DNA of 64,000 nucleotides, from positions 18,727 through 82,726 of the forward strand of contig JAKFDE010000035.1 of the NCBI GenBank assembly GCA_036676295.1. Reading direction: 5' to 3'. This document shows, one piece after another, positions 37,746 to 54,173 of the stretch (within the stretch, counting starts at the first letter, position 1; every line of letters begins with the position of its first letter). Below the pieces are notes generated by a model, which made no database searches, was not told the DNA's origin, and saw only the letters and a program-made list of their open reading frames with translations. The stretch is from Bacteroidia bacterium (GTDB lineage: Bacteria > Bacteroidota > Bacteroidia > B-17B0 > Aurantibacillaceae). The position numbers and the translations under genes are program-made.

Positions 37746-37877
37746 AATTTATAAAGAAGTGGCGAGAGAATAGGCTCATTGACCCACTGGCAACCAACTC
37801 AAAGTACAGATGTTACAATCAGTATTGGAAAACAGGTGCCAATTCCTACTCCGATGAAAAGCGGAGGAAAATAAATT
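37746..37877 (+). promoter_or_regulatory. SAM-I (S-box) riboswitch aptamer
   Basis: P1 AAUUUAU (37746-52) pairs with AUAAAUU (37871-77). ...GUGGCGAGAGAAUAGGCUCAUUGACCCACUGGCAACC...GGUGCCAAUUCC UACUCCGAUGAAAAGCGGAGGA reproduces the conserved GGCAACC / GGUGCCAAUUCC junctions and the P4 hairpin (CUCCG/CGGAG). Lies upstream of metX-hom. Confidence 0.8.
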
Positions 37878-37889
37878 AAAAACAAAAAA

Positions 37890-38006
37890 ATGAAACACAC
37901 AAAATCAAAAACAAACAACAAATTCAGTGTTCAAGGTGTAACCTGTAATTCAATTTCTGCTTTCTTCATGATGGCCTGTATGTGTTGCTATTGCTGCATG
38001 TGCTAA
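37890..38006 (+). CDS. Cys/Met-rich short ORF (38 aa), candidate met/cys leader peptide
   Basis: ATG is 13 nt after the riboswitch P1. MKHTKSKTNNKFSVQGVTCNSISAFFMMACMCCYCCMC*; 10 of the last 12 codons are Met or Cys. Below the ORF-track size cutoff. Confidence 0.55.
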   Translation: MKHTKSKTNNKFSVQGVTCNSISAFFMMACMCCYCCMC

Positions 38007-38132: not shown

Positions 38133-38369
38133 ATGAAAACAAATAGAAATTTTAATACAACAGATATAACTACAAATAACTTGATCGGAGAAATTGGTCA
38201 CCGTCATTTTTTAGAATTGCAAGCTAATTTTGGTTTTGCACAAAGAGGAGGCGTTAAATTCCCGTTAGGTAATACAAATCATAATAAACGCTTGGCCAGT
38301 GATATCAATATTTTGAATTCACAAGAGCATAAACAATTAATTTTTTCGGAAGTTATTTTTAGTAATTAA
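38133..38369 (+). CDS. Hypothetical 78 aa protein (orphan ORF upstream of metX)
   Basis: ATG-initiated ORF ending 7 nt before metX. No recognisable motif, so it may not be coding. Confidence 0.3.
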   Translation: MKTNRNFNTTDITTNNLIGEIGHRHFLELQANFGFAQRGGVKFPLGNTNHNKRLASDINILNSQEHKQLIFSEVIFSN

Positions 38370-41310: not shown

Positions 41311-41385
41311 ATGAAAAAGACGCCATTACATAAATTATTTTCTACAAAGCACATGATGTATTGTTGGATGCAACGTTGTTGTTAA
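41311..41385 (+). CDS. Met/Cys-rich leader peptide (24 aa) of the AKR-sir operon
   Basis: MKKTPLHKLFSTKHMMYCWMQRCC*; 6 of the last 10 codons are Met/Cys. An antiterminator/terminator pair follows directly. Confidence 0.65.
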   Translation: MKKTPLHKLFSTKHMMYCWMQRCC

Positions 41386-41412: not shown

Positions 41413-41441
41413 CCCCTCCGTTTGCACGGTGGGGTTTTTTT
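41413..41441 (+). terminator. Attenuator terminator upstream of the AKR-sir operon
   Basis: CCCCTCCG (41413-20), loop TTTGCA, CGGTGGGG (41427-34), then T7 (41435-41), 37 nt before the AKR ATG. The upstream CGGAAGG (41386-92) can instead pair with CCCTCCG (41414-20), enclosing an ATATT/AATAT mini-hairpin. That pairing is the candidate antiterminator. Confidence 0.8.
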
Positions 41442-41477: not shown

Positions 41478-42356
41478 ATGGAAAAAATTTATATCAGCGA
41501 AACAGGACCAGAAGTGTCCGCAGCCATCTACGGTTTTTGGAGATGGAACACTGTAGCTTTAGCAACAGAAAAAAAAGTTGAAGACATTATCAATTATAAT
41601 TTGGAATTAGGTGTAAACACCTTTGATCATAGCAATAATTACAGTAGTGGAAAAATCGAAGAATTATTTGGTAAGGTCATTTCAAAAAGTAACATTAACC
41701 GTGAGGATATTATTATTTCTACGAAATCAGGGATCAGAAACTTTTCGAACAAAAGTTCTAAAGGTGTTTATTACGATCTAAGCCCTGAACACATTACCAA
41801 AAGTATTGAAGAATCATTACAGCATTTAAAAACAGATTACATTGATATCTTTTTGTTAGAACATTACGATCCTTTGTATCAGGTTGAGGAAACTGCTTCG
41901 GCATTAATTAAATTATTACGCAGTGGCAAAGTAAAGCACATCGGTGTTTCTAACTTTAATGTCTTTCAACACCGTTTATTAGCCTCTCATTTAAATCAGC
42001 CAATTGTTACCAATCATATCGAATTGAATTTGTTGCAAAGTAGTGCTATTGATGATGGACGTTTGGATTTTATCAAAGAGCAATACAGTAAACCAATGGC
42101 CTTTGCTCCTTTAGCCGGTGGTCGTATTTTAAATGGTAAAGACAAGAAAGCGATCTCTGTTAGAAAAGCATTAACTGAAATTGCTAAAAATCATTCGATC
42201 AATGTAGAGCAAGCGGCGGTTGCATGGTTGTATAAACTAGGTGCTTTGCCAATTATTGGCAGTACGGATAAAAAACGTATTAAGAATGCGGCGAGCGCTT
42301 ACTCGGTTAATTTAAGTAAAGAAGAATGGTATCAATTGTATAACGCTGCAAAATAA
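41478..42356 (+). CDS. Aldo/keto reductase family oxidoreductase
   Basis: 292 aa. AKR (YdhF-like) pattern FDHSNNY, STKSG, DIFLLEH and HIGVSNF. Confidence 0.8.
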   Translation: MEKIYISETGPEVSAAIYGFWRWNTVALATEKKVEDIINYNLELGVNTFDHSNNYSSGKIEELFGKVISKSNINREDIIISTKSGIRNFSNKSSKGVYYDLSPEHITKSIEESLQHLKTDYIDIFLLEHYDPLYQVEETASALIKLLRSGKVKHIGVSNFNVFQHRLLASHLNQPIVTNHIELNLLQSSAIDDGRLDFIKEQYSKPMAFAPLAGGRILNGKDKKAISVRKALTEIAKNHSINVEQAAVAWLYKLGALPIIGSTDKKRIKNAASAYSVNLSKEEWYQLYNAAK

Positions 42357-42361
42357 TTTAT

Positions 42362-44488
42362 ATGCAAAGTTTTAGATCAGAATTAGAATTAGTCAATCAC
42401 TCAGGCAAAGCCTTGGTAGAAAAAGATATCATTGATCTGGATAAAAAGATCCGTGAATTTCGTGAAGGAAAAATTCATGAAGAAAAATTCAGAAGTCTTC
42501 GTTTAGCTCGTGGCGTTTATGGGCAAAGACAACAAGGTGTTCAGATGATCCGTATTAAATTACCATTTGGTAAAGTGAGTACTCAACAATTGTTGCGTAT
42601 TGCAGATATTAGTGATGAATATTCTAATGGAAATTTGCATTTAACCACTCGTCAGGATATTCAAATCCATCATGTGAGTTTGGATAGAACACCTGAGTTA
42701 TGGGCTAAGTTGGAACAAGAGGATATTACTTTACGTGAAGCTTGTGGTAATACGGTTCGTAATATAACGGCTTCTGCCGAAGCAGGTATCGACCCACATG
42801 AAGTATTTGATGTATCGCCTTATGCACATGCATTGTTTACTTATTTTTTGCGTAAACCATTTTGTCAGGAAATGGGAAGAAAGATCAAGATGGCTTTTTC
42901 TAATAATGATCAGGACACTGCTTTTACTTATATCCATGATTTGGGATTTATTCCAAAAATAAAAAATGGCGAAAGAGGATTTAAAGTTTTAGTGGGAGGT
43001 GGTTTAGGCGCTCAGCCATTTTTGGCGCAAACTGCTTTTGAATTTTTACATGAAGATAAACTAATTCCTTTTGTGGAAGCAACACTCAGAGTGTTTGATA
43101 GACATGGGGAAAGAGCCAGCAGACATAAAGCTCGCATCAAATATCTGATCAATAAAATTGGAATAGAAGAGTTTTTGAAATTGGTGAAAGAAGAAGAAAA
43201 AGCGTTGTTGGTAAAAGAATTTGAAATTGATACACGTTTAGAAAATGGTATAACCACTCTAAAAACAGTTTTACCAAAGGACTTGCCTGTTGTTAATGAA
43301 GATGATTATAAATTGTGGTTACAGACAAACACGTTTGAACAAAAACAAGCAGGGTTGTTTGGTGTGTATGTAAAAGTACAATTAGGAAATATTTCATCTG
43401 ATAAAACACGCAAGTTCGTAAAAGCGATTGCTAAGTACGCAGATACTGAAGATATACGTATTACGATCAATCAGGGCTTTTTATTAAAAAATATTGCTAA
43501 AGAAGAATTGCCATTTCTTTACAATGAATTGAATCGAATTAAGTTAGCTACACCTGGGTTTGATTCGGTAGCGGATATAACGGCTTGTCCTGGAACTGAT
43601 ACCTGTAATTTAGCTATTTCAAACAGCACCCATATTTCGGTGGCTTTAGAAAATGTGATCACGGAAGAATTCCCTGAATTGGTTCATAATCATGATATTA
43701 AAATCAAGATCAGTGGTTGTATGAATTCTTGCGGGCAACATGGGTTAGCTCAAATTGGCTTTCATGGCAGTTCTTTTAAAGTTGGTACAACTGTAGTTCC
43801 TGCTTTGCAAGTGTTATTGGGTGGTGGAACAGTAGGTAATGGTAAAGGTAGAATTTCGGAGAAAGTAATTAAAGTGGCCAGTAAACGTGCTCCGGATGTG
43901 TTAAGAAAATTATTTAATGATTTTGAAGCGAATGCGGTTGAAGGAGAATATTTTAATTCGTACTACGATAAAAAAGGGAAAGATTATTTCTATCAGTTAT
44001 TAAAACCAATAGGAGATAATAGTTCTTTAACTCCTGAAGAGTTAATTGATTGGGGACAGGAAGAGAAATTTGCGACAGCAATTGGAGTAGGAGAGTGTGC
44101 CGGTGTGGTGATCGATTTGGTAGCGACCTTGTTTTTTGAAGCGGAAGAAAAATTAGCCTGGAGTGCAGAAGCCTTTGAAAATAAACAATGGGGTGACAGT
44201 ATTTATTATTCTTATGCCGCTTTTATAAATGCTGCTAAGGGATTATTGTTAGATAAGCAAGTGCATGTGAATACACAACATGGAGTAATTAATGATTTTG
44301 ATAAAACATTTGTAGAATCAGGATTGATAAAATTAAAAGGTGAGTTTAAAGAATTGATCTTACAAATTAATAAACATGAGCCATCTATAGAGTTTGCTGA
44401 ATACTATTTCAACCAAGCAGAGCAGTTTTTAAATACCGTTAAAGTTTATAGGAATACTAATGTCACCCTGAGCGAAGTTGAAAGTTAA
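42362..44488 (+). CDS. sir: Assimilatory sulfite reductase (ferredoxin-type nitrite/sulfite reductase hemoprotein) with ~140 aa C-terminal extension
   Basis: 708 aa. Siroheme/4Fe-4S Cys motifs (ACPGTDTCNLA, SGCMNSCGQH) and duplicated NIR_SIR ferredoxin-like halves. Extra helical C-terminal domain. The last codons (NVTLSEVES) lie in a REP half-unit. Confidence 0.88.
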   Translation: MQSFRSELELVNHSGKALVEKDIIDLDKKIREFREGKIHEEKFRSLRLARGVYGQRQQGVQMIRIKLPFGKVSTQQLLRIADISDEYSNGNLHLTTRQDIQIHHVSLDRTPELWAKLEQEDITLREACGNTVRNITASAEAGIDPHEVFDVSPYAHALFTYFLRKPFCQEMGRKIKMAFSNNDQDTAFTYIHDLGFIPKIKNGERGFKVLVGGGLGAQPFLAQTAFEFLHEDKLIPFVEATLRVFDRHGERASRHKARIKYLINKIGIEEFLKLVKEEEKALLVKEFEIDTRLENGITTLKTVLPKDLPVVNEDDYKLWLQTNTFEQKQAGLFGVYVKVQLGNISSDKTRKFVKAIAKYADTEDIRITINQGFLLKNIAKEELPFLYNELNRIKLATPGFDSVADITACPGTDTCNLAISNSTHISVALENVITEEFPELVHNHDIKIKISGCMNSCGQHGLAQIGFHGSSFKVGTTVVPALQVLLGGGTVGNGKGRISEKVIKVASKRAPDVLRKLFNDFEANAVEGEYFNSYYDKKGKDYFYQLLKPIGDNSSLTPEELIDWGQEEKFATAIGVGECAGVVIDLVATLFFEAEEKLAWSAEAFENKQWGDSIYYSYAAFINAAKGLLLDKQVHVNTQHGVINDFDKTFVESGLIKLKGEFKELILQINKHEPSIEFAEYYFNQAEQFLNTVKVYRNTNVTLSEVES
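44462..44484. repeat. REP half-unit embedded in the 3' end of sir
   Basis: gtcaccctgagcgaagttgaaag closely matches gtcaccctgagcggagtcgaagg at 50468-50490. Confidence 0.6.
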
Positions 44489-44497
44489 TTATAAGTC

Positions 44498-44569
44498 ATG
44501 AAAAAAAGTAAATATATCTATATCAAGTTTGACAGTTGTTGTTGCTGTTGTGCTATCATAATATTTTAA
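44498..44569 (+). CDS. Penta-cysteine short ORF (23 aa), candidate cysteine-sensing leader peptide
   Basis: ATG is 9 nt after the sir stop. MKKSKYIYIKFDSCCCCCAIIIF*, with five consecutive Cys codons tgt tgt tgc tgt tgt at 44537-44551. Confidence 0.6.
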   Translation: MKKSKYIYIKFDSCCCCCAIIIF

Positions 44570-44618
44570 CTGTATGTGATGTTTCGGCTAATACAGTTGT
44601 ACTTAAAACCGAAACACC
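44570..44618 (+). promoter_or_regulatory. Mutually exclusive hairpins downstream of the poly-Cys sORF
   Basis: Hairpin A is CTGTAT (44570-75) with ATACAG (44591-96). Hairpin B is GTGATGTTTCGG (44576-87) with CCGAAACACC (44609-18). B's 5' arm lies in A's loop. No U-tract follows. The cobA ATG is at 44644. Confidence 0.4.
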
Positions 44619-44643
44619 AATAATAAATTAAACAAAAGAAATC

Positions 44644-45432
44644 ATGAGTAAAAAAATATATCCAAAATTAACCTTAGTAGGCGCGGGTCCTGGTGATCCT
44701 GATTTGATTACTGTTAAAGGAATTAAAGCCTTAAATACAGCAGATGTCATTTTATATGATGCTTTAGTAAATCCTGAAATTTTAAAACACGCTTCGTCTG
44801 AAGCCTTAACCATTTATGTAGGGAAACGTAATCACGAACATATTTATACTCAAGAACAAATAAATACCTTGATTGTTAATTACGCATACACTCACGGACA
44901 TGTAGTTCGTTTAAAAGGCGGAGACTCATTTGTCTTTGGTCGTGGTCAGGAAGAGATCAATTACATACAATCCTTTAATATTGAAACAGCTGTTGTCCCC
45001 GGTATATCCAGTTCTATTGGTGTTCCTGCATTGAGTGGTATTCCTGTTACACACCGTGGTGTGAGTGAAAGCTTTTGGGTAATTACAGGAACAACCAGAA
45101 CTAACCAGTTATCGGATGATGTGAAATTGGCAGCTGAAACCAATGCAACCGTTGTTATTTTAATGGGAATTTCAAAATTGAAAGAGATCGTAGAAATTTA
45201 TAAGAAAGAAAGAAAGTATGATACTGCTATTGCTTTGATCCAAAATGGTTCTTTAGAAACTGAAAAAATTGCTTTAGGAACGATTGATACAATTTTAAAA
45301 ACGGCTAAAAAAGAAAAGATTGAAGCACCTGCTGTTATTGTGATTGGTGACGTTGTGAAGCAACATATTAAATTTCCAGTAGAATTCTCAAATCTTAATT
45401 CATTATTAACTAAGATAGGAGGAGTGTCATGA
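44644..45432 (+). CDS. cobA: Uroporphyrinogen-III C-methyltransferase
   Basis: 262 aa. LVGAGPGDPDLITVKG SAM-binding N-terminus and RLKGGDSFVFGRG motif. Confidence 0.9.
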   Translation: MSKKIYPKLTLVGAGPGDPDLITVKGIKALNTADVILYDALVNPEILKHASSEALTIYVGKRNHEHIYTQEQINTLIVNYAYTHGHVVRLKGGDSFVFGRGQEEINYIQSFNIETAVVPGISSSIGVPALSGIPVTHRGVSESFWVITGTTRTNQLSDDVKLAAETNATVVILMGISKLKEIVEIYKKERKYDTAIALIQNGSLETEKIALGTIDTILKTAKKEKIEAPAVIVIGDVVKQHIKFPVEFSNLNSLLTKIGGVS

Positions 45433-46157
45433 AATTAAAATTATTTTTTGTTGTGATCATTGTGTTATTCGTTCTTAAGGCTTCGTCACAAGAAAATCAG
45501 GTTCATAATTATTATAACAATATGCTATGGGGAGGTTATTATAATACGATCGAAATAAATCCAAAATGGAGTATTGCTTCTGACGCACAAATAAGAACCA
45601 ATAATTGGCAGGAGAGTTTGTCTCAGGGCTTTGTTCGTTCTGGGTTAAATTATAAGTTTAATGATAAGATCAATGCTACAGCCGGATTCGCTTATTTTAA
45701 TTATATTATTACAAATTCTATTTGCAGAAATGAATACCGTCCCTGGCAAGAAGTTGCCATTAATGATAAATGGTGGAAGTTAAAAGTAACTCATCGTTAC
45801 AGGCTGGAAGAACGATTTAATCAAAAAATAAAAAATAGTTCTTCTATAAATGATTATACATTTAATTACCGCTTCAGGTATAAATTGGATTTTAAAATTC
45901 CTTTTAAAAAAGAATCTGAGAAAGGATCGAATGTGTATGTGATAGTAGGAAACGAATTGATGGTAAATATTGGCGATAAAGTAAGTCTTAATTTTTTTGA
46001 TCAAAATAGATCTTATATCGGTATTCATTATGAGTTAAATAGTAAACTTGGTCTGCAAATTCAATACATGAGAATATGGCAGCAATTGGCAGGAGGAACT
46101 TCTATGAATAATATTAATGTTTTACGTTTTAATATTTATCACACGATTACATTATGA
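45429..46157 (+). CDS. DUF2490-like secreted beta-barrel protein
   Basis: 242 aa. Signal peptide MKLKLFFVVIIVLFVLKASSQ. Aromatic-rich strands and an R.R.E.RF-type motif (HRYRLEERF). ATGA overlaps on both sides, with cobA and with sirC::TSUP. Confidence 0.5.
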   Translation: MKLKLFFVVIIVLFVLKASSQENQVHNYYNNMLWGGYYNTIEINPKWSIASDAQIRTNNWQESLSQGFVRSGLNYKFNDKINATAGFAYFNYIITNSICRNEYRPWQEVAINDKWWKLKVTHRYRLEERFNQKIKNSSSINDYTFNYRFRYKLDFKIPFKKESEKGSNVYVIVGNELMVNIGDKVSLNFFDQNRSYIGIHYELNSKLGLQIQYMRIWQQLAGGTSMNNINVLRFNIYHTITL

Positions 46158-47620
46158 TATCAGAAACAACAAATCAATTATTCCCGGTTTTTTTAAAACT
46201 AGAGAACTTCCGCGTGCTTATTGTAGGCGGTGGTAAAGTAGGTTTAGAAAAAGTGAGTGCTATTTTAAATAATAGTCCTCAAACGAGAATTACGTTAGTT
46301 GCTTCTAATGTGAGCGATGATATTAGAACGTTGAGTTTAAAACATGATAATTTAAAAATTCAGGAACGTGCTTTTTCAGAAAGTGATTTGAATGAAATTG
46401 ATCTGGTGATTTCTGCAGTTAATAATAAAGAAACGAGTTTAAAGATTAAAAATTTATCTAAGGAAAGAAACATTATTGCCAATGTGGCTGATACACCTGA
46501 GCAATGTGATTTTTACTTAGGATCTATTGTGCAAAAAGGGCAGGTGAAGATCGCTATATCTACTAATGGAAAATCGCCTACCATTGCCAAACGTATTCGT
46601 GAAACACTGGAAGATTCTTTTCCTTTAGAGATCAATGAATCTTTAGATAATTTGACTAATGTGAGAAAACACTTGAGTGGAAATTTTACTGATAAAGTAA
46701 AACAATTGAATAAGATTACTGCTGTGCTTTCTTCTGATCCTTCACAACTGACAAAAATCAGTAAAAAAAGAAGATTGATCTACAGTTTGTCAATCCCGGC
46801 TTTATTGATCCTGGGATATTTGTTATGTTATTATTTACCACCTGTTGTTATTGGCGGTTATAGCATTCAAATAGCAGAAAGCATTGATTCGAATATCCTC
46901 TATTATATTTTAGCAGGATTTGTAGCTCAGATGATTGATGGCGCGTTGGGCATGGCTTATGGTGTAACGGCAACCACATTTTTATTATCAGGTGGTATTT
47001 CGCCGGCAGCATCAAGTGCCAGTGTTCATGCTTCTGAAATTTTCACGAGTGGTGTGTCGGGTTTAATGCATTTGAAATTTGGAAACGTGAATACTAAACT
47101 GTTTCGTTCTTTATTAATTCCAGGAGTGATCGGTGCAATTTTAGGTGCGTATGTTTTAACCTCGCTCGAAGATTATAATTACATCATCAAACCATTGGTT
47201 TCAGGATACACTTTGTTTTTAGGAGTAGTGATTATTTTTAAGGCACTCAAAAAAGATAGTATTCGTAAACGTATCAAGCGAATTTTTCCTTTGGCATTTA
47301 CCGGCGGCTTGCTGGATTCAATTGGTGGTGGTGGTTGGGGACCAATTGTTTCATCAACCTTAATAGCAAGAGGTAGGAATGCACGTTACACCATTGGTTC
47401 TGTTAACCTGGCTGAATTTTTTGTAGCACTTGCTAGTTCTTTAACATTTGTCACCATCATTGGTTTAACACATTGGGTCATAATTGTAGGGTTAATTATA
47501 GGTGGAGTGATTGCAGCACCAATTGCGGCATATTTAGCTAATAAAATTCCTACTAAAACAATTATGATTTTGGTAGGTGTAGTAGTAATTATTGTAAGCT
47601 TAAAACGAATATTTTTTTAA
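46154..47620 (+). CDS. Fusion protein: precorrin-2 dehydrogenase/sirohydrochlorin ferrochelatase (SirC/CysG-N-like) + TauE/SafE (TSUP) family permease
   Basis: 488 aa. The N-terminal ~195 aa carry a VGGGKVG Rossmann site and the NVAD..E.CDF, ISTNGKSP motifs of siroheme synthase N-domains. The C-terminal ~280 aa have ~8 TM helices with GMAYGV and GGGGWGP motifs typical of DUF81/TSUP. Confidence 0.75.
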   Translation: MISETTNQLFPVFLKLENFRVLIVGGGKVGLEKVSAILNNSPQTRITLVASNVSDDIRTLSLKHDNLKIQERAFSESDLNEIDLVISAVNNKETSLKIKNLSKERNIIANVADTPEQCDFYLGSIVQKGQVKIAISTNGKSPTIAKRIRETLEDSFPLEINESLDNLTNVRKHLSGNFTDKVKQLNKITAVLSSDPSQLTKISKKRRLIYSLSIPALLILGYLLCYYLPPVVIGGYSIQIAESIDSNILYYILAGFVAQMIDGALGMAYGVTATTFLLSGGISPAASSASVHASEIFTSGVSGLMHLKFGNVNTKLFRSLLIPGVIGAILGAYVLTSLEDYNYIIKPLVSGYTLFLGVVIIFKALKKDSIRKRIKRIFPLAFTGGLLDSIGGGGWGPIVSSTLIARGRNARYTIGSVNLAEFFVALASSLTFVTIIGLTHWVIIVGLIIGGVIAAPIAAYLANKIPTKTIMILVGVVVIIVSLKRIFF

Positions 47621-47624
47621 AATT

Positions 47625-47662
47625 CCCCTCTCCTCAAAGGAGAGGGGCCAGGGGTGAGGTCG
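47625..47662. repeat. REP-like G/C-rich palindromic element (CCCCTC..GAGGGG family)
   Basis: CCCCTCTCC-tcaaa-GGAGAGGGG ccaggggtgaggtcg, immediately after the sirC::TSUP stop. A likely terminator-like hairpin. Confidence 0.7.
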
Positions 47663-47731
47663 TTATGAGTAACCGCACTTTTGTTCAAGCAAAAAGAAAA
47701 GATAAATAATAATAAAATAAAAAAAACAAAT

Positions 47732-48742
47732 ATGATAACAACAGACATAGCTATTGTAGGCGCAGGACCGGTAGCATTATTTGCCATTTTTGAAGCAGGG
47801 CTTTTGAAAATGAGATGTCATTTAATTGATTACTTGCCACAAGTTGGCGGACAATTATCAGAGATCTATCCTAAGAAACCAATTTATGATATTCCCGGGT
47901 ATCCTACAGTGTTAGCGCAGGAATTGATCGATAATTTAGTGAAGCAAGCTGAGCCGTTTGGCCCAACTTATACCTTAGGTGAGCGTATTGAATCATTGGA
48001 AAAAATTGGCGACCGTGATTTTATTTTAACCACCAATATGGGTACAAAGATCAATGCAAGTGCTGTAGTAATTGCAGGTGGATTGGGCTGTTTTGAACCT
48101 CGTAAACCGGAAGTAGAAGGCTTACATCGTTTTGAAAATGGGAAAGGAATTAGTTACATGATACTGGATCCTGAAACATATCGTGATAAAAAATTAGTAA
48201 TTGCCGGTGGTGGAGATAGTGCTTTGGATTGGAGTATTTTTTTAGCAGATATTGCTAAAGAAGTGACCTTGGTTCATAGAAGTGAATCGTTCCGTGGAGC
48301 ACCTGATAGCGTGAATAAAGTAATGACATTAGCACAGCAGGGAAAAATTAATTTATTATTGAATTCTAATTTATCTAACGTGGGTGGTAATGGTGTTTTA
48401 AAAAGTGTGGGTGTTGTAAATATTAAAACAAAAGAAGAACAAATTATTGAAGCCGATAATTTAATTCCGTTGTTCGGTTTAAGTCCTAAGTTAGGGCCAA
48501 TTGAAGGCTGGGGATTAAATATTGATAAAAATGCCATTGAAGTAAATACGGATGATTATTCAACCAACATCGAAGGGGTGTATGCCATTGGTGATATCAA
48601 TACGTATAAAAATAAATTAAAACTGATCTTGTGTGGTTTTCATGAGGCGGCATTAATGAGTCATAGCGCTTATAAATACATTAATCCGGGCGTTAAGTAT
48701 ACTATGAAATATACAACGGTGAATGGTGTTAATTCTTTTTAG
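47732..48742 (+). CDS. Ferredoxin-NADP+ reductase, thioredoxin-reductase-like (YumC type)
   Basis: IAIVGAGPVALFA FAD site, LPQVGGQLSEIYPKKPIYDIPGYP, GGGDSALDW and AIGDI motifs match TrxR-type FNR. The ORF-track start at 47681 is TTG, so ATG at 47732 is preferred. Confidence 0.8.
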   Translation: MITTDIAIVGAGPVALFAIFEAGLLKMRCHLIDYLPQVGGQLSEIYPKKPIYDIPGYPTVLAQELIDNLVKQAEPFGPTYTLGERIESLEKIGDRDFILTTNMGTKINASAVVIAGGLGCFEPRKPEVEGLHRFENGKGISYMILDPETYRDKKLVIAGGGDSALDWSIFLADIAKEVTLVHRSESFRGAPDSVNKVMTLAQQGKINLLLNSNLSNVGGNGVLKSVGVVNIKTKEEQIIEADNLIPLFGLSPKLGPIEGWGLNIDKNAIEVNTDDYSTNIEGVYAIGDINTYKNKLKLILCGFHEAALMSHSAYKYINPGVKYTMKYTTVNGVNSF

Positions 48743-48744
48743 TG

Positions 48745-48786
48745 GTCACTTCGAGTACCGACGAAGGAGGTGTATCGAGAAGTGAT
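48745..48786. repeat. REP-like palindromic element (GTCAC..GAG..TCGAG family)
   Basis: gtcacttcgagtaccgacgaaggaggtgtatcgagaagtgat, between the FNR and osmC genes. Confidence 0.6.
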
Positions 48787-48843
48787 TGAAATTAAAATAG
48801 ATTAATAGAATAAAGTATATTTAAATAAATAAATTTTAAGAAT

Positions 48844-49257
48844 ATGAAAATTAATTTAAAACGACTGGATAATGATTTTAACATCGAAGCTACCAATGAA
48901 GATGGAAATACTTTATTAATGGATGGTTCAGCCGAGATCGGTGGACATGGAAAAGGAATGCGTCCAATGCAACTATTGTTAGCTGCTGTTGGAGGATGCA
49001 GTGCTATTGATGTGATCCTGATCTTGAAAAAACAAAAACAAGTCATCGACTCTTTTGAGATCGAAGTGGATGGTGAGCGAGAGAAGATCGAAGATTATTC
49101 TTTGTTCAGAGATATTGTTCTGCATTTTAAAATCAAAGGACAAGTGGATTATGATAAAGCAGAGCGAGCTATTAAATTATCTATGGATAAATATTGTTCT
49201 GTTTCTAAAACATTGGAATCAACCGCAAAGATCACTTATAAATTAACGATTAACTAG
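48844..49257 (+). CDS. OsmC-family protein
   Basis: 137 aa. GMRPMQLLLAAVGGCSAIDV and KYCSVSKTL contain the two conserved OsmC cysteines. Confidence 0.8.
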   Translation: MKINLKRLDNDFNIEATNEDGNTLLMDGSAEIGGHGKGMRPMQLLLAAVGGCSAIDVILILKKQKQVIDSFEIEVDGEREKIEDYSLFRDIVLHFKIKGQVDYDKAERAIKLSMDKYCSVSKTLESTAKITYKLTIN

Positions 49258-49262
49258 AACCA

Positions 49263-50432
49263 ATGAAAGATAAACATTTTGAAACCCAGGCCATTCGTGC
49301 TCAATTTGAGCGTAGCGATAATAACGAACATTCTGTTCCATTATATTTAACATCTAGTTTTGTATTTGATACAGCGGAAGAAATGCGCGCGGCTTTTAAC
49401 GAAGAGTCGGATGATTTTATTTATTCGCGCTACATCAATCCAAACACGAATGAGTTCATTAACAAAGTATGTTTACTGGAAGGGGCTGAATCTGGTTTGG
49501 CAACAGCTTCAGGTATGGCCGCTATTTTTACTACGTTCATGACGATCTTAAAATCCGGTGACCATGTGGTGTCCTGTTCTTCGGTATTTGGCGCAACACA
49601 TGCCGTCTTTACCAAGTATTTTCCTAAATGGAATATTTCTTATTCTTATTTTAATACAGGTAATGTTGAAGAGATCGAAAAACTGATCAAGCCCGAAACT
49701 AAATTTATTTATTTAGAAACACCTACTAATCCTGCTATCGAATTAATTGATCTGGAATTAGTTGCTAAAGTGGCTAAGAAACATAATATCCTATTGATCG
49801 TAGATAATTGTTTTGCAACACCTTATTTACAACAACCAATTAAGTTTGGTGCTGATCTGGTAATTCACTCAGCTACTAAATACATGGATGGACAAGGTCG
49901 TGTGTTGGGTGGAATTGTAGTTGGTAAGAAAGAGTTGATACACGATATTTATTTATTTGGCAGATTAACAGGACCGTCTATGAGTCCGTTTAATGCCTGG
50001 GTGTTAAGTAAGAGTTTAGAAACCTTGGCATTACGTATGGACAGGCATTGTGAGAACGCATTACATGTAGCACAAAAATTAGAGGGACATACCAAATTAG
50101 AAAATGTGTCTTATCCGTTTTTGCCTTCTCATCCGCATCATGCTATTGCTAAAAAACAAATGAAAGCAGGTGGAGGGATCATTACTATTACGGTGAAAGG
50201 TGGTTACGAAGCAGCTAAAACATTTTTGGATAAATTACAAATGATAAAAATTTCTCCAAACTTAGGTGATGCACGAAGTATTGTTACACATCCTGCTTCT
50301 TCAACACATTGTAAATTAAGTGAGGAAGAACGATTAAAGGTTGGTATCACGCCGGGATTAATTCGCGTATCTATTGGATTAGAAAATAAAGAGGATATTT
50401 TAAATGATATTTTACAAGCATTGAAAGATTAA
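49263..50432 (+). CDS. Cys/Met-metabolism PLP enzyme (cystathionine gamma-synthase / O-acylhomoserine sulfhydrylase family)
   Basis: 389 aa. Trans-sulfuration family pattern including HSATKYMDGQG (PLP-lysine). Confidence 0.85.
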   Translation: MKDKHFETQAIRAQFERSDNNEHSVPLYLTSSFVFDTAEEMRAAFNEESDDFIYSRYINPNTNEFINKVCLLEGAESGLATASGMAAIFTTFMTILKSGDHVVSCSSVFGATHAVFTKYFPKWNISYSYFNTGNVEEIEKLIKPETKFIYLETPTNPAIELIDLELVAKVAKKHNILLIVDNCFATPYLQQPIKFGADLVIHSATKYMDGQGRVLGGIVVGKKELIHDIYLFGRLTGPSMSPFNAWVLSKSLETLALRMDRHCENALHVAQKLEGHTKLENVSYPFLPSHPHHAIAKKQMKAGGGIITITVKGGYEAAKTFLDKLQMIKISPNLGDARSIVTHPASSTHCKLSEEERLKVGITPGLIRVSIGLENKEDILNDILQALKD

Positions 50433-54111: not shown

Positions 54112-54138
54112 GTTTTTGTTGTTTAGTTAGTTATGGAG

Positions 54139-54168
54139 CCACGGGTTATAATGATCCGTGGTTTTTTT
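54139..54168 (+). terminator. Intrinsic terminator after the thioesterase gene
   Basis: CCACGG-gttataatgat-CCGTGG followed by T7. Confidence 0.7.
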
Positions 54169-54173
54169 ATTTC

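Follow-up and report, generated by a model that had tools for sequence, protein, structure and literature searches.

Ribosome-based sensing of amino acids on short open reading frames (sORFs) is textbook knowledge for Proteobacteria. To our knowledge, the sensing of cysteine (Cys) by such frames is established solely in mycobacteria and has been predicted in a few other groups. In Mycobacterium smegmatis, polycysteine leaderless sORF attenuators act translationally and form a "Cys ribulon", in which a ribosome, once stalled, exposes the start site of the following gene (Canestrari et al., bioRxiv 10.1101/834739). Cys-codon sensor ORFs without terminators were predicted earlier in Actinobacteria (PMC1262725), and uORFC-8-2, located upstream of cysS in Rhodobacterales (Alphaproteobacteria), is a predicted Cys attenuator with a terminator (PMC8632094). 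Transcriptome studies of Flavobacterium psychrophilum and of Bacteroides thetaiotaomicron refer to sORFs of the leader-peptide kind only in general terms, and a literature search, incomplete for subscription journals, found no cysteine sORF described in Bacteroidota. The stretch analyzed here (the window) comprises 64 kb of contig JAKFDE010000035.1 of a Bacteroidia bacterium. Its sir-cobA spacer contains a 23-codon ORF, sORF3, which has five consecutive Cys codons and is followed by two hairpins, A and B. We favor, with moderate confidence, the view that sORF3 is a ribosome-read cysteine sensor within the operon, a leader-peptide-type attenuator located between cistrons. What is new here is most likely a terminator-less, mid-operon form of a known Cys-codon control, in Bacteroidia.

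The locus has several features in common with the mycobacterial Cys ribulon. In both, a short ORF with at least two consecutive Cys codons lies in cis to cysteine or sulfur-assimilation genes, there is no intrinsic terminator, and stalling on the Cys codons is proposed to relieve an inhibitory RNA structure. In mycobacteria several such sORFs serve related operons; here three sORFs rich in methionine (Met) and Cys, each of them conserved, occur in one 7-kb cluster. In four relatives (L010, L012, L015 and L017) the Cys codons are complementary to the start of the next gene, as in mycobacteria. The locus differs from the mycobacterial system in belonging to another phylum that does not use Shine-Dalgarno-based initiation, and there is no sequence homology. 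sORF3 is neither leaderless nor the first ORF but is intercistronic and coupled to the sir stop codon. In addition, the Cys tract of the window is not in a sequestering duplex; the stalled ribosome would instead spare A, which would block B.

Classical attenuation (trpL, hisL) is similar in that the regulatory codons match the pathway's end product and in that two helices are predicted to compete, the "anti" helix being melted by a ribosome at the stop codon and the more stable helix being the off state. It differs in that no U-tract follows B in 22 copies, in that the element is intercistronic and not a 5' leader, and in that the helices interleave, B having its 5' arm in the loop of A, and do not share one strand. 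In ermC/cat translational attenuation a stalled ribosome chooses between hairpins and the output is downstream initiation, which fits the ten relatives in which B is extended by pairing with positions -20..-9 of cobA. Here, however, aminoacyl-tRNA shortage would be the signal in place of a drug and a nascent peptide, no Shine-Dalgarno sequence is present that could be hidden, and the window copy is without start-region pairing. The tnaC type of Rho-dependent control also has a leader ORF without an intrinsic terminator, and a ribosome near the stop codon decides downstream transcription; in tnaC stalling occurs at the stop codon, whereas here it would occur at the Cys codons. No C-rich sequence resembling a Rho utilization (rut) site is evident beside the sORF3 stop codon, as judged by reading the sequence, its composition not being computed. 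sORF3 misses two features of classical attenuators and two of the mycobacterial class, yet the principle is the same.

A polycysteine reading frame between sir and cobA

sORF3 (44498..44569, on the + strand like all other features described here) encodes the peptide MKKSKYIYIKFDSCCCCCAIIIF and is the proposed sensor ORF. Its ATG is at 44498 and its TAA at 44567-69. The stop codon of sir (TAA, 44486..44488; sir is 42362-44488) lies 9 nucleotides (nt) 5' of the sORF3 AUG, and since there is an in-frame TAA at 44492-94, no start codon earlier than 44498 is available. The earlier note on this DNA, made from the letters alone, had described a 23-codon ORF at this distance from sir, and both its coordinates and its translation were reproduced. 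The Cys run (44537..44551) reads UGU UGU UGC UGU UGU (TGTTGTTGCTGTTGT) and is the proposed stall site when Cys-tRNA is scarce.

The run TGTTGTTGCTGTTGT is the sole run of at least four TGY triplets (Y, pyrimidine) on both strands of the 64-kb window. Base composition gives an expectation of 0.0023 (TGY)5 runs per window, and such a run was present in 2 of 300 first-order Markov simulations of the window. The earlier suggestion that a run of five Cys codons is unlikely to be due to chance is borne out by this expectation and by the uniqueness of the run, although short ORFs as such are common in the window. A search of NCBIfam with the three sORF peptides of the cluster (sORF1, sORF2 and sORF3) gave no match. 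Only a SAM (S-adenosylmethionine) riboswitch at 37746-37877 passes the Rfam gathering thresholds in the window, and a permissive Rfam scan of 44400-44750 returned chance-level matches alone (E of 1.2 or higher).

A scan for Sir proteins with one genome per species gave 80 loci. L001-L031 are metagenome-assembled genomes (MAGs) of uncultured Bacteroidia with a Sir identity of 64-82%, and the remainder are Pedobacter, Arcicella, Emticicia and their allies at about 62%. The gene cobA follows sir in nearly all 80 loci. The earlier note had proposed a search for poly-Cys sORFs in this spacer of relatives; they are present in 25 of the 30 close loci with the sir-cobA order and on four metagenome contigs, and all carriers of the element are uncultured MAGs. 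When metagenomes were scanned for the pattern of the element in other gene contexts, 70 matches were obtained, of which 66 are due to chance and four are genuine, all of the latter at sir-cobA. One metagenome contig (Ga0066415_1000166), with genes 94% identical to those of the window, encodes MKKSKYIYIKLDSCCCCRMIMF.

The spacer of the carrier loci is 135-220 nt long. The sORF has 17-32 codons with 3-7 consecutive Cys, for which TGT and TGC are mixed; examples of the peptides are MSKRKYIYIKYDSCCCCIKNK, MKIIMCLHKACCCCCCCWLIHN, one ending in DKMRCCCCCCCKYK, MKNYTQIKYCCCCCMIML and MKTKLIQRKYCCCFMCMR. The Cys run is the constant part and the rest of the peptide is variable, to the extent that the peptide types are unrelated outside the run (YIYIKFDS-C4, MKIIMCLHKA-C6-7, MKNYTQIKY-C5, MKTKLIQRKY-C3). 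GC-rich, repeat-like insertions occur in the spacers of L012, L017 and L020.

Two observations bear on the translation of sORF3. In 16 members of the YIYIK subgroup, the eight codons that precede the Cys run have a ratio of nonsynonymous to synonymous variation (pN/pS) of 0.25 when read in the frame of the sORF and of 0.83 and 0.75 in the other frames, and we infer that sORF3 is read by ribosomes. In 21 of 26 loci the sORF AUG is -8 to +2 nt from the sir stop codon, overlaps taking the form ATGA or TAATG, and in no locus does the distance exceed 12 nt. Touching or overlapping codons are the standard layout of translational coupling, and the ribosomes that read the sORF probably arrive straight from the end of sir. 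The C-terminal region of Sir is a separate ORF in L018 (9110-9517), and its stop codon overlaps the sORF AUG.

Hairpins A and B and the position of the ribosome

Hairpin A begins at the stop codon of sORF3. Its 5' arm (44567..44575, UAACUGUAU) overlaps the UAA, and its 3' arm is at 44591..44599 (AUACAGUUG). The 5' arm of hairpin B (44577..44587, with the core UGUUUCGG at 44580-87) lies inside the loop of A. An A-rich linker (44600..44608, UACUUAAAA) separates the 3' arm of A from that of B (44609..44619, with the core CCGAAACA at 44609-16), which is followed by CCAAUAAUAAAUU; the outer pairs of B join 44577-78 to 44618-19. The earlier note had placed both hairpins in these positions. The layout is common to the core members: helix A has 9-14 base pairs (bp), with a 5' arm whose first nucleotide is 0 to +3 nt from where the stop codon begins, a loop of 9-15 nt holds the 5' arm of B with the conserved core UUUCGG, and an A-rich linker of 7-12 nt, the 3' arm of B (CCGAAA) and 23-33 A-rich nt then lead to the cobA AUG.

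Since the 59-nt structured stretch of the window is not exceptional by itself (z = -1.65), the case for the hairpins rests on the comparison with relatives. Covariation was tested on a MAFFT alignment of 18 sequences that had been made without reference to any structure. The cells are paired at 88.2% versus at most 52% when the partners are slid by 1-3 columns, and the covariation score is 0.328 versus 0.173 in shuffles, none of 500 of which reach the observed value; ten pairs are changed on both sides. In helix A, 6 of 11 pairs are changed on both sides and 92.9% of cells are paired, while the B core has compensatory changes in three of eight pairs and 90.3% of cells paired. Outer B is weaker at 68%. 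RNAalifold independently predicts A, with compensatory changes in five of eight pairs. A relative at 94% (L130) has a change of CAG to CGG in the 3' arm of A, which keeps the pair as U.G. In L024, L026, L029 and L030 the interleaved A/B layout is rebuilt from unrelated sequence, for example AGCUCAUUGUAAU/AUUAUAAUGAGCU with UUUCCUCC/GGAGGAAA. The element is real and conserved, and it is probably regulatory.

No run of U follows B in the window or in 21 relatives (22 loci). On the + strand between 37 and 55 kb, the only U-tract terminators are at 41416-41441, after sORF2, and at 54135-54172, at the end of the operon. An intrinsic terminator at B was rejected, because no copy has a U-tract and the terminator scan finds those of sORF2 and the operon end but not B. 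The earlier inference that control at B is not by intrinsic termination agrees with this result, although the organism does use canonical U-tract terminators.

In the window, A has a predicted energy of -7.8 kcal/mol and B of -11.3 kcal/mol, and the barrier to pseudoknot-free refolding is about 12 kcal/mol (9-20 kcal/mol in relatives). In this model, the ground state is B, which in relatives includes its extensions, and A, which is transcribed first, is a kinetic trap. Of 26 loci, 13 have four codons between the last Cys codon and the stop codon and 18 have four or five; the window has five. Counted from the first base of its A-site codon, a bacterial ribosome has its front edge about 13 nt farther 3'. 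With this footprint and spacing, a ribosome awaiting Cys-tRNA at the last Cys codon would end 2-5 nt short of A. A ribosome that moves on would have to unwind A, and once on the stop codon it would sit on the 5' arm of A.

The mechanism that we propose, and consider somewhat probable, is as follows. Ribosomes that end sir would re-start on the sORF3 AUG 9 nt downstream. When charged tRNA-Cys is scarce, they would stall on the UGU/UGC run with the front edge just short of the stop codon. Hairpin A would then form once it is transcribed and would lock the 5' arm of B in its loop, with both the A-rich start of cobA and the 3' arm of B left single-stranded. The stalled ribosome would in this way keep A and leave cobA, the DUF2490 gene and the sirC-TauE fusion gene on, and probably also the rest of the operon to cysHDN. 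When cysteine is ample, the ribosome would reach the stop codon and unwind A, the arms of B would pair, and this more stable B state would lower downstream expression. After the ribosome departs, the preformed B of relatives may be extended by the freed arm of A, which is a kinetic argument.

Direction of the switch and competing explanations

The first gene proposed as regulated is cobA (44644-45432). Its initiation region with the AUG (44620..44646; AUG at 44644) is A-rich and predicted to be unstructured. Initiation in Bacteroidia is tuned by mRNA structure, through an A-rich and unstructured start, and not by Shine-Dalgarno sequences (PMC6847099); with such initiation, an extended B would hide the start region of cobA. 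In ten relatives (L003-L009, L028, L008, L011) the freed 5' arm of A pairs with positions -20..-9 of cobA and extends B, so that one long hairpin is formed. The extension duplex has z-scores of -2.8 to -4.9, and the change from UUUAACUG/CAGUUAAA to UAUAACUG/CAGUUAUA within it is compensatory. L010, L012, L015 and L017 are without A/B; there, CAACAACAA, which directly precedes the cobA AUG, is the complement of the Cys codons GUUGUUGUUGC (z of -2.2 to -3.2). Such pairing is otherwise found only in L026 and L027. The pairing in the former four loci is best described as a second, mycobacterial-like architecture of the same putative sensor.

A third line of evidence comes from sORF2 (41311-85), which encodes MKKTPLHKLFSTKHMMYCWMQRCC (ending in HMMYCWMQRCC) upstream of AKR-sir. 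A predicted antiterminator pairs AACGGAAGG (41384-92) with CCUCCGUU (41415-22), and its 5' arm overlaps the stop codon, like hairpin A. The terminator (41413-20/41427-34, CCCCUCCG-UUUGCA-CGGUGGGG) is followed by seven U at 41435-41. By its sequence sORF2 is a textbook Met/Cys leader-peptide attenuator in which a ribosome at the stop codon would give the terminator, and this logic is unambiguous. A Met/Cys leader with a U-tract terminator is found upstream of sir in most relatives (surveyed in L001-L031 and L033-L079), including Pedobacter (MNQTIYNGNLMLTHCMCG), and a literature search found no description of leaders of this type. Since the sORF2 antiterminator has the same relation to its stop codon as A, A is likely to be the on state as well. 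The sORF2 analogy, the extension of B in relatives and the pairing of the Cys run with the start in other relatives all point to A as the on state. A cell that is short of cysteine needs siroheme synthesis and sulfate activation, which further supports starvation as the on signal.

Several observations weigh against the proposed mechanism. The cobA start of the window is predicted to be 78-83% unpaired in every modelled ribosome state. The extension pairing has decayed there to UUAAA (z = 1.3), and the Cys run does not pair with positions -30..+12 of cobA (z = 0.2). B ends 27 nt 5' of the cobA AUG without a U-tract, so that an off mechanism is missing in this copy. The action of the B state in the window may be weak translational inhibition (steric or at a standby site), factor-dependent termination, polarity or very little effect. 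The peptide also shows constraint that a pure codon sensor does not need. YIYIK[FY][DE]S is constrained at the peptide level, and the tail after the Cys run is a near-invariant AUGAUAAUG (Met-Ile-Met) in many relatives (L008, L011, L012, L014, L017-L021, L027, L030, L107, L108, L130 and L146), while the window has GCUAUCAUAAUA (AIII). A ribosome paused on the Met codons of this tail would cover the 5' arm of A.

The element is also dispensable. The sORF is missing in the close relatives L013, L016 and L031, where the spacer is 17-23 nt. In L021 the Cys run has decayed to Cys-Trp, with one Cys codon, and the RNA of A/B is retained. L022 and L023 have tiny MMC/MVC ORFs and other structures in place of the sORF, and the Cys sORF is absent at sir-cobA in Pedobacter, Arcicella and Emticicia. 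Since it is absent from distant genera and from several close loci, the element is clade-specific and dispensable and has been lost several times.

Some of the spacers without sORF3 have structures of their own. In L022 (9138-9260), a 6-codon ORF (MMCRIL) is followed by a hairpin, AUGGUGGUU/AACCACCAU, with an 11-nt loop UCGAGAGCCUC. The bases of this loop and those of the loop in the hairpin that follows (UUGUUGAC-UGAGGCUCUCGAA-GUCAACAA) are perfectly complementary, a kissing-loop version of the interleaved A/B. In Arcicella/Cytophagales loci (L035, L036, L039, L040, L057 and others) the spacer holds no sORF and a strong, plain hairpin, for example GGUGAGUGAAUAGG...CCUAUUUAUUCACC, which suggests that the sir-cobA junction is a recurrent site of an intercistronic RNA element.

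Folding of the relatives at equilibrium could also be read against the preferred direction. The accessibility of the cobA start was modelled in this way under three ribosome positions, and in relatives the start is opened less by a stalled ribosome than by one at the stop codon. With the latter, its unpaired fraction rises from 0.38 to 0.87 in L003, from 0.35 to 0.68 in L007 and from 0.43 to 0.93 in L021, and the rise is smaller if the ribosome is stalled. Read naively, this gives the opposite switch logic, and the preferred direction rests on kinetics and analogy. The opposite logic would be that of a relay, in which cobA is translated only if ribosomes complete the sORF and melt the long hairpin formed by B and by the 5' arm of A with the cobA start, whereby the start is opened or receives the ribosomes directly. 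Stalling at the Cys codons would then lower cobA, or the element would merely tie the translation of cobA to that of sir. The tight coupling of the sORF to sir fits such a relay, as do the long hairpin, which is the minimum-energy fold in many relatives, and the 17-23 nt between sir and cobA in the relatives without the element, which amounts to direct coupling. We regard it as unlikely, since lowering siroheme synthesis and cysHDN in cysteine shortage would be physiologically senseless and a plain coupling device has no need of a Cys run. In addition, sORF2 in the same operon has the classical logic with an antiterminator that likewise overlaps the stop codon, the pairing of the Cys run with the start in L010, L012, L015 and L017 would work solely with starvation as the on state, and the window copy is without any start-region pairing.

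The peptide constraint noted above could instead reflect a functional poly-Cys micro-protein, for example a metal-binding, Fe-S- or siroheme-related or membrane peptide. The hairpins would then be an unrelated intercistronic element (a stabilizer, processing site or partial terminator) that sets the sir:cobA ratio. The purifying selection on the eight residues before the Cys run (pN/pS 0.25) and the conserved hydrophobic tail (MIMI, MIML, AIIIF) are in line with this possibility, as are the plain spacer hairpins of distant genera and the retention of A/B in L021 despite its decayed Cys run. However, outside the Cys run the peptides are of unrelated types, and both their length and their number of Cys vary. 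Two further Met/Cys-rich sORFs are in leader positions of the cluster, one of them a textbook attenuator. Independent elements would require neither the fixed position of the 5' arm of A at the stop codon nor a Cys-to-stop distance that fits the ribosome footprint. No family match was found, and there are no maturation or partner genes for a Cys-rich micro-protein or a ribosomally made, post-translationally modified peptide (RiPP) near sORF3, where the neighbors are all sulfur-assimilation enzymes. A micro-protein is therefore improbable as the main role of sORF3.

The earlier note had called A and B mutually exclusive, and this stands for full-length B with its outer pairs. In L001, L002, L008, L009, L011, L019 and L021, inner A (GUUUG/CAAAC) and outer B (UUUGAA/UUCAAA) share UUUG, and therefore full-length B and A exclude each other. 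It need not hold for the 6-8 bp core of B, which shares no bases with A in many members, and few or none in the window and L003-L007. There, interleaved arms allow a pseudoknot geometry, a further point against the two-state model, and judging by the loop lengths, A and the B core could coexist as an H-type pseudoknot. Such a pseudoknot after the stop codon would be static, a mechanical barrier or protective structure and not a two-state switch. It would have a stem 1 of 9-11 bp, a loop 1 of 1-4 nt, a stem 2 of 6-8 bp and an A-rich loop 3 of 7-12 nt. These loop lengths are within the range of known minimal pseudoknots of the infectious bronchitis virus (IBV) type, and both helices covary simultaneously. 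On the other side, a full-length B of 12-14 bp cannot fit a loop of 9-15 nt, the UUUG shared in seven loci excludes both helices at full length, the energies give a clear ground state and a trapped state, and there is no conserved downstream frame for readthrough or frameshifting. A static pseudoknot is accordingly an improbable description of the element.

A chance ORF in an AT-rich spacer with fortuitous hairpins, which the z-score of the window stretch and the abundance of short ORFs might suggest, has a negligible probability, given that about 0.002 (TGY)5 runs are expected and that 29 other loci have kept the sORF in its frame and position and both helices, with covariation.

Three other candidates were rejected. 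A poly-Leu reading of (TGY)n would use a frame that has no ATG and crosses the covarying hairpins, and selection is seen in the Cys frame only. Readthrough or frameshifting at sORF3 driven by a pseudoknot is countered by an in-frame extension that hits a TAA at 44624-26, by the position of cobA in another frame, by stop codons that vary among loci (13 TAA, 10 TAG, 3 TGA) and by the lack of a conserved slippery site. An internal promoter is not supported, since no Bacteroidetes-type TAnnTTTG box occurs on the + strand in 41805-49355; the GTTTG that is conserved in the element of relatives reads TGnnTTTG and is missing in the window.

The operon, its companion leaders and their meaning

The cluster as a whole is concerned with sulfate reduction, siroheme synthesis and Met/Cys synthesis, and sORF3 has an intercistronic position in it and is not in the 5' leader of the transcript. 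The sir product has the NIR_SIR and NIR_SIR_ferr domains of sulfite reductase. The 708-aa Sir also has a C-terminal extension with a weak match to a HEPN domain at residues 590-676 (44129-44389; E = 2e-5). The cobA product is a uroporphyrinogen-III C-methyltransferase. The genes 3' of cobA encode, in order, a DUF2490 protein, a fusion of a siroheme-synthase N-domain with TauE/SafE, a pyridine-nucleotide oxidoreductase and OsmC, followed further downstream by a pyridoxal-phosphate (PLP) enzyme of the Cys/Met type, a phosphoadenosine phosphosulfate (PAPS) reductase, cysD and cysN. Domain matches confirmed the gene neighbors that had been named earlier from the letters. The fusion (46154-47620) is a single 488-aa protein that joins a siroheme-synthase N-terminal domain of the precorrin-2 dehydrogenase/ferrochelatase type to a TauE/SafE sulfite-exporter-like membrane domain.

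The earlier note had mentioned two further Cys/Met sORFs, which were located at 37890-38006 (sORF1) and at 41311-41385 (sORF2). A likeness of all three N-termini (MKK...) had also been claimed, but it is a generic start and not a specific resemblance, since Lys-rich, A-rich starts are generic in this AT-rich phylum without Shine-Dalgarno sequences. sORF1, whose peptide ends in FFMMACMCCYCCMC, starts 13 nt after a SAM-I riboswitch (37746-37877; Rfam match, 66.1 bits) upstream of metX-hom, and no terminator lies between the two. Three hairpins without a U-tract follow sORF1 (UUUUCC/GGAAAA, CCUUGG/CCAAGG, and one from GAUGCAUUC to GCAUC), and the arrangement of riboswitch, sORF1 and three hairpins is conserved in 12 relatives. 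The 3' strand of the riboswitch P1 helix (AUAAAUUAA) is at about -21..-13 of the sORF1 AUG. This position suggests that the riboswitch may gate the translation of the Met/Cys leader, with two sensors in series. A 78-codon putative ORF without a Pfam match (38133-38369) lies between the sORF1 leader structures and metX, and its status as a gene is uncertain.

A broader model of the cluster is possible but tentative. It would make the element a terminator-less, mid-operon "ribosome relay" of Bacteroidia without Shine-Dalgarno initiation, in which the ribosome from sir is passed to the poly-Cys ORF. Crossing the stop codon would convert the trapped hairpin to the ground-state hairpin, which would close the start of the next cistron in a purely translational way. 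The relay would be one arm of a Met/Cys "ribulon" of three sORFs, of which one arm would be in series with the SAM riboswitch, and the upstream peptide would tune the stalling.

If the favored reading of sORF3 is correct, the principle of ribosome-based sensing would extend to Bacteroidota, which lack Shine-Dalgarno initiation, and to a site between cistrons that is fed by the ribosome of the upstream gene. The element would provide a compact model, supported by covariation, for the control of initiation by structure only in Bacteroidia, and a model for successive checkpoints in one operon, where sORF2 with its terminator is followed by sORF3 without one. It may also serve as a candidate part for cysteine-responsive gene control in Bacteroidia. 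For annotation, poly-Cys and Met/Cys sORFs beside sir, cobA or metX in Bacteroidia would be read as regulatory and not as noise.

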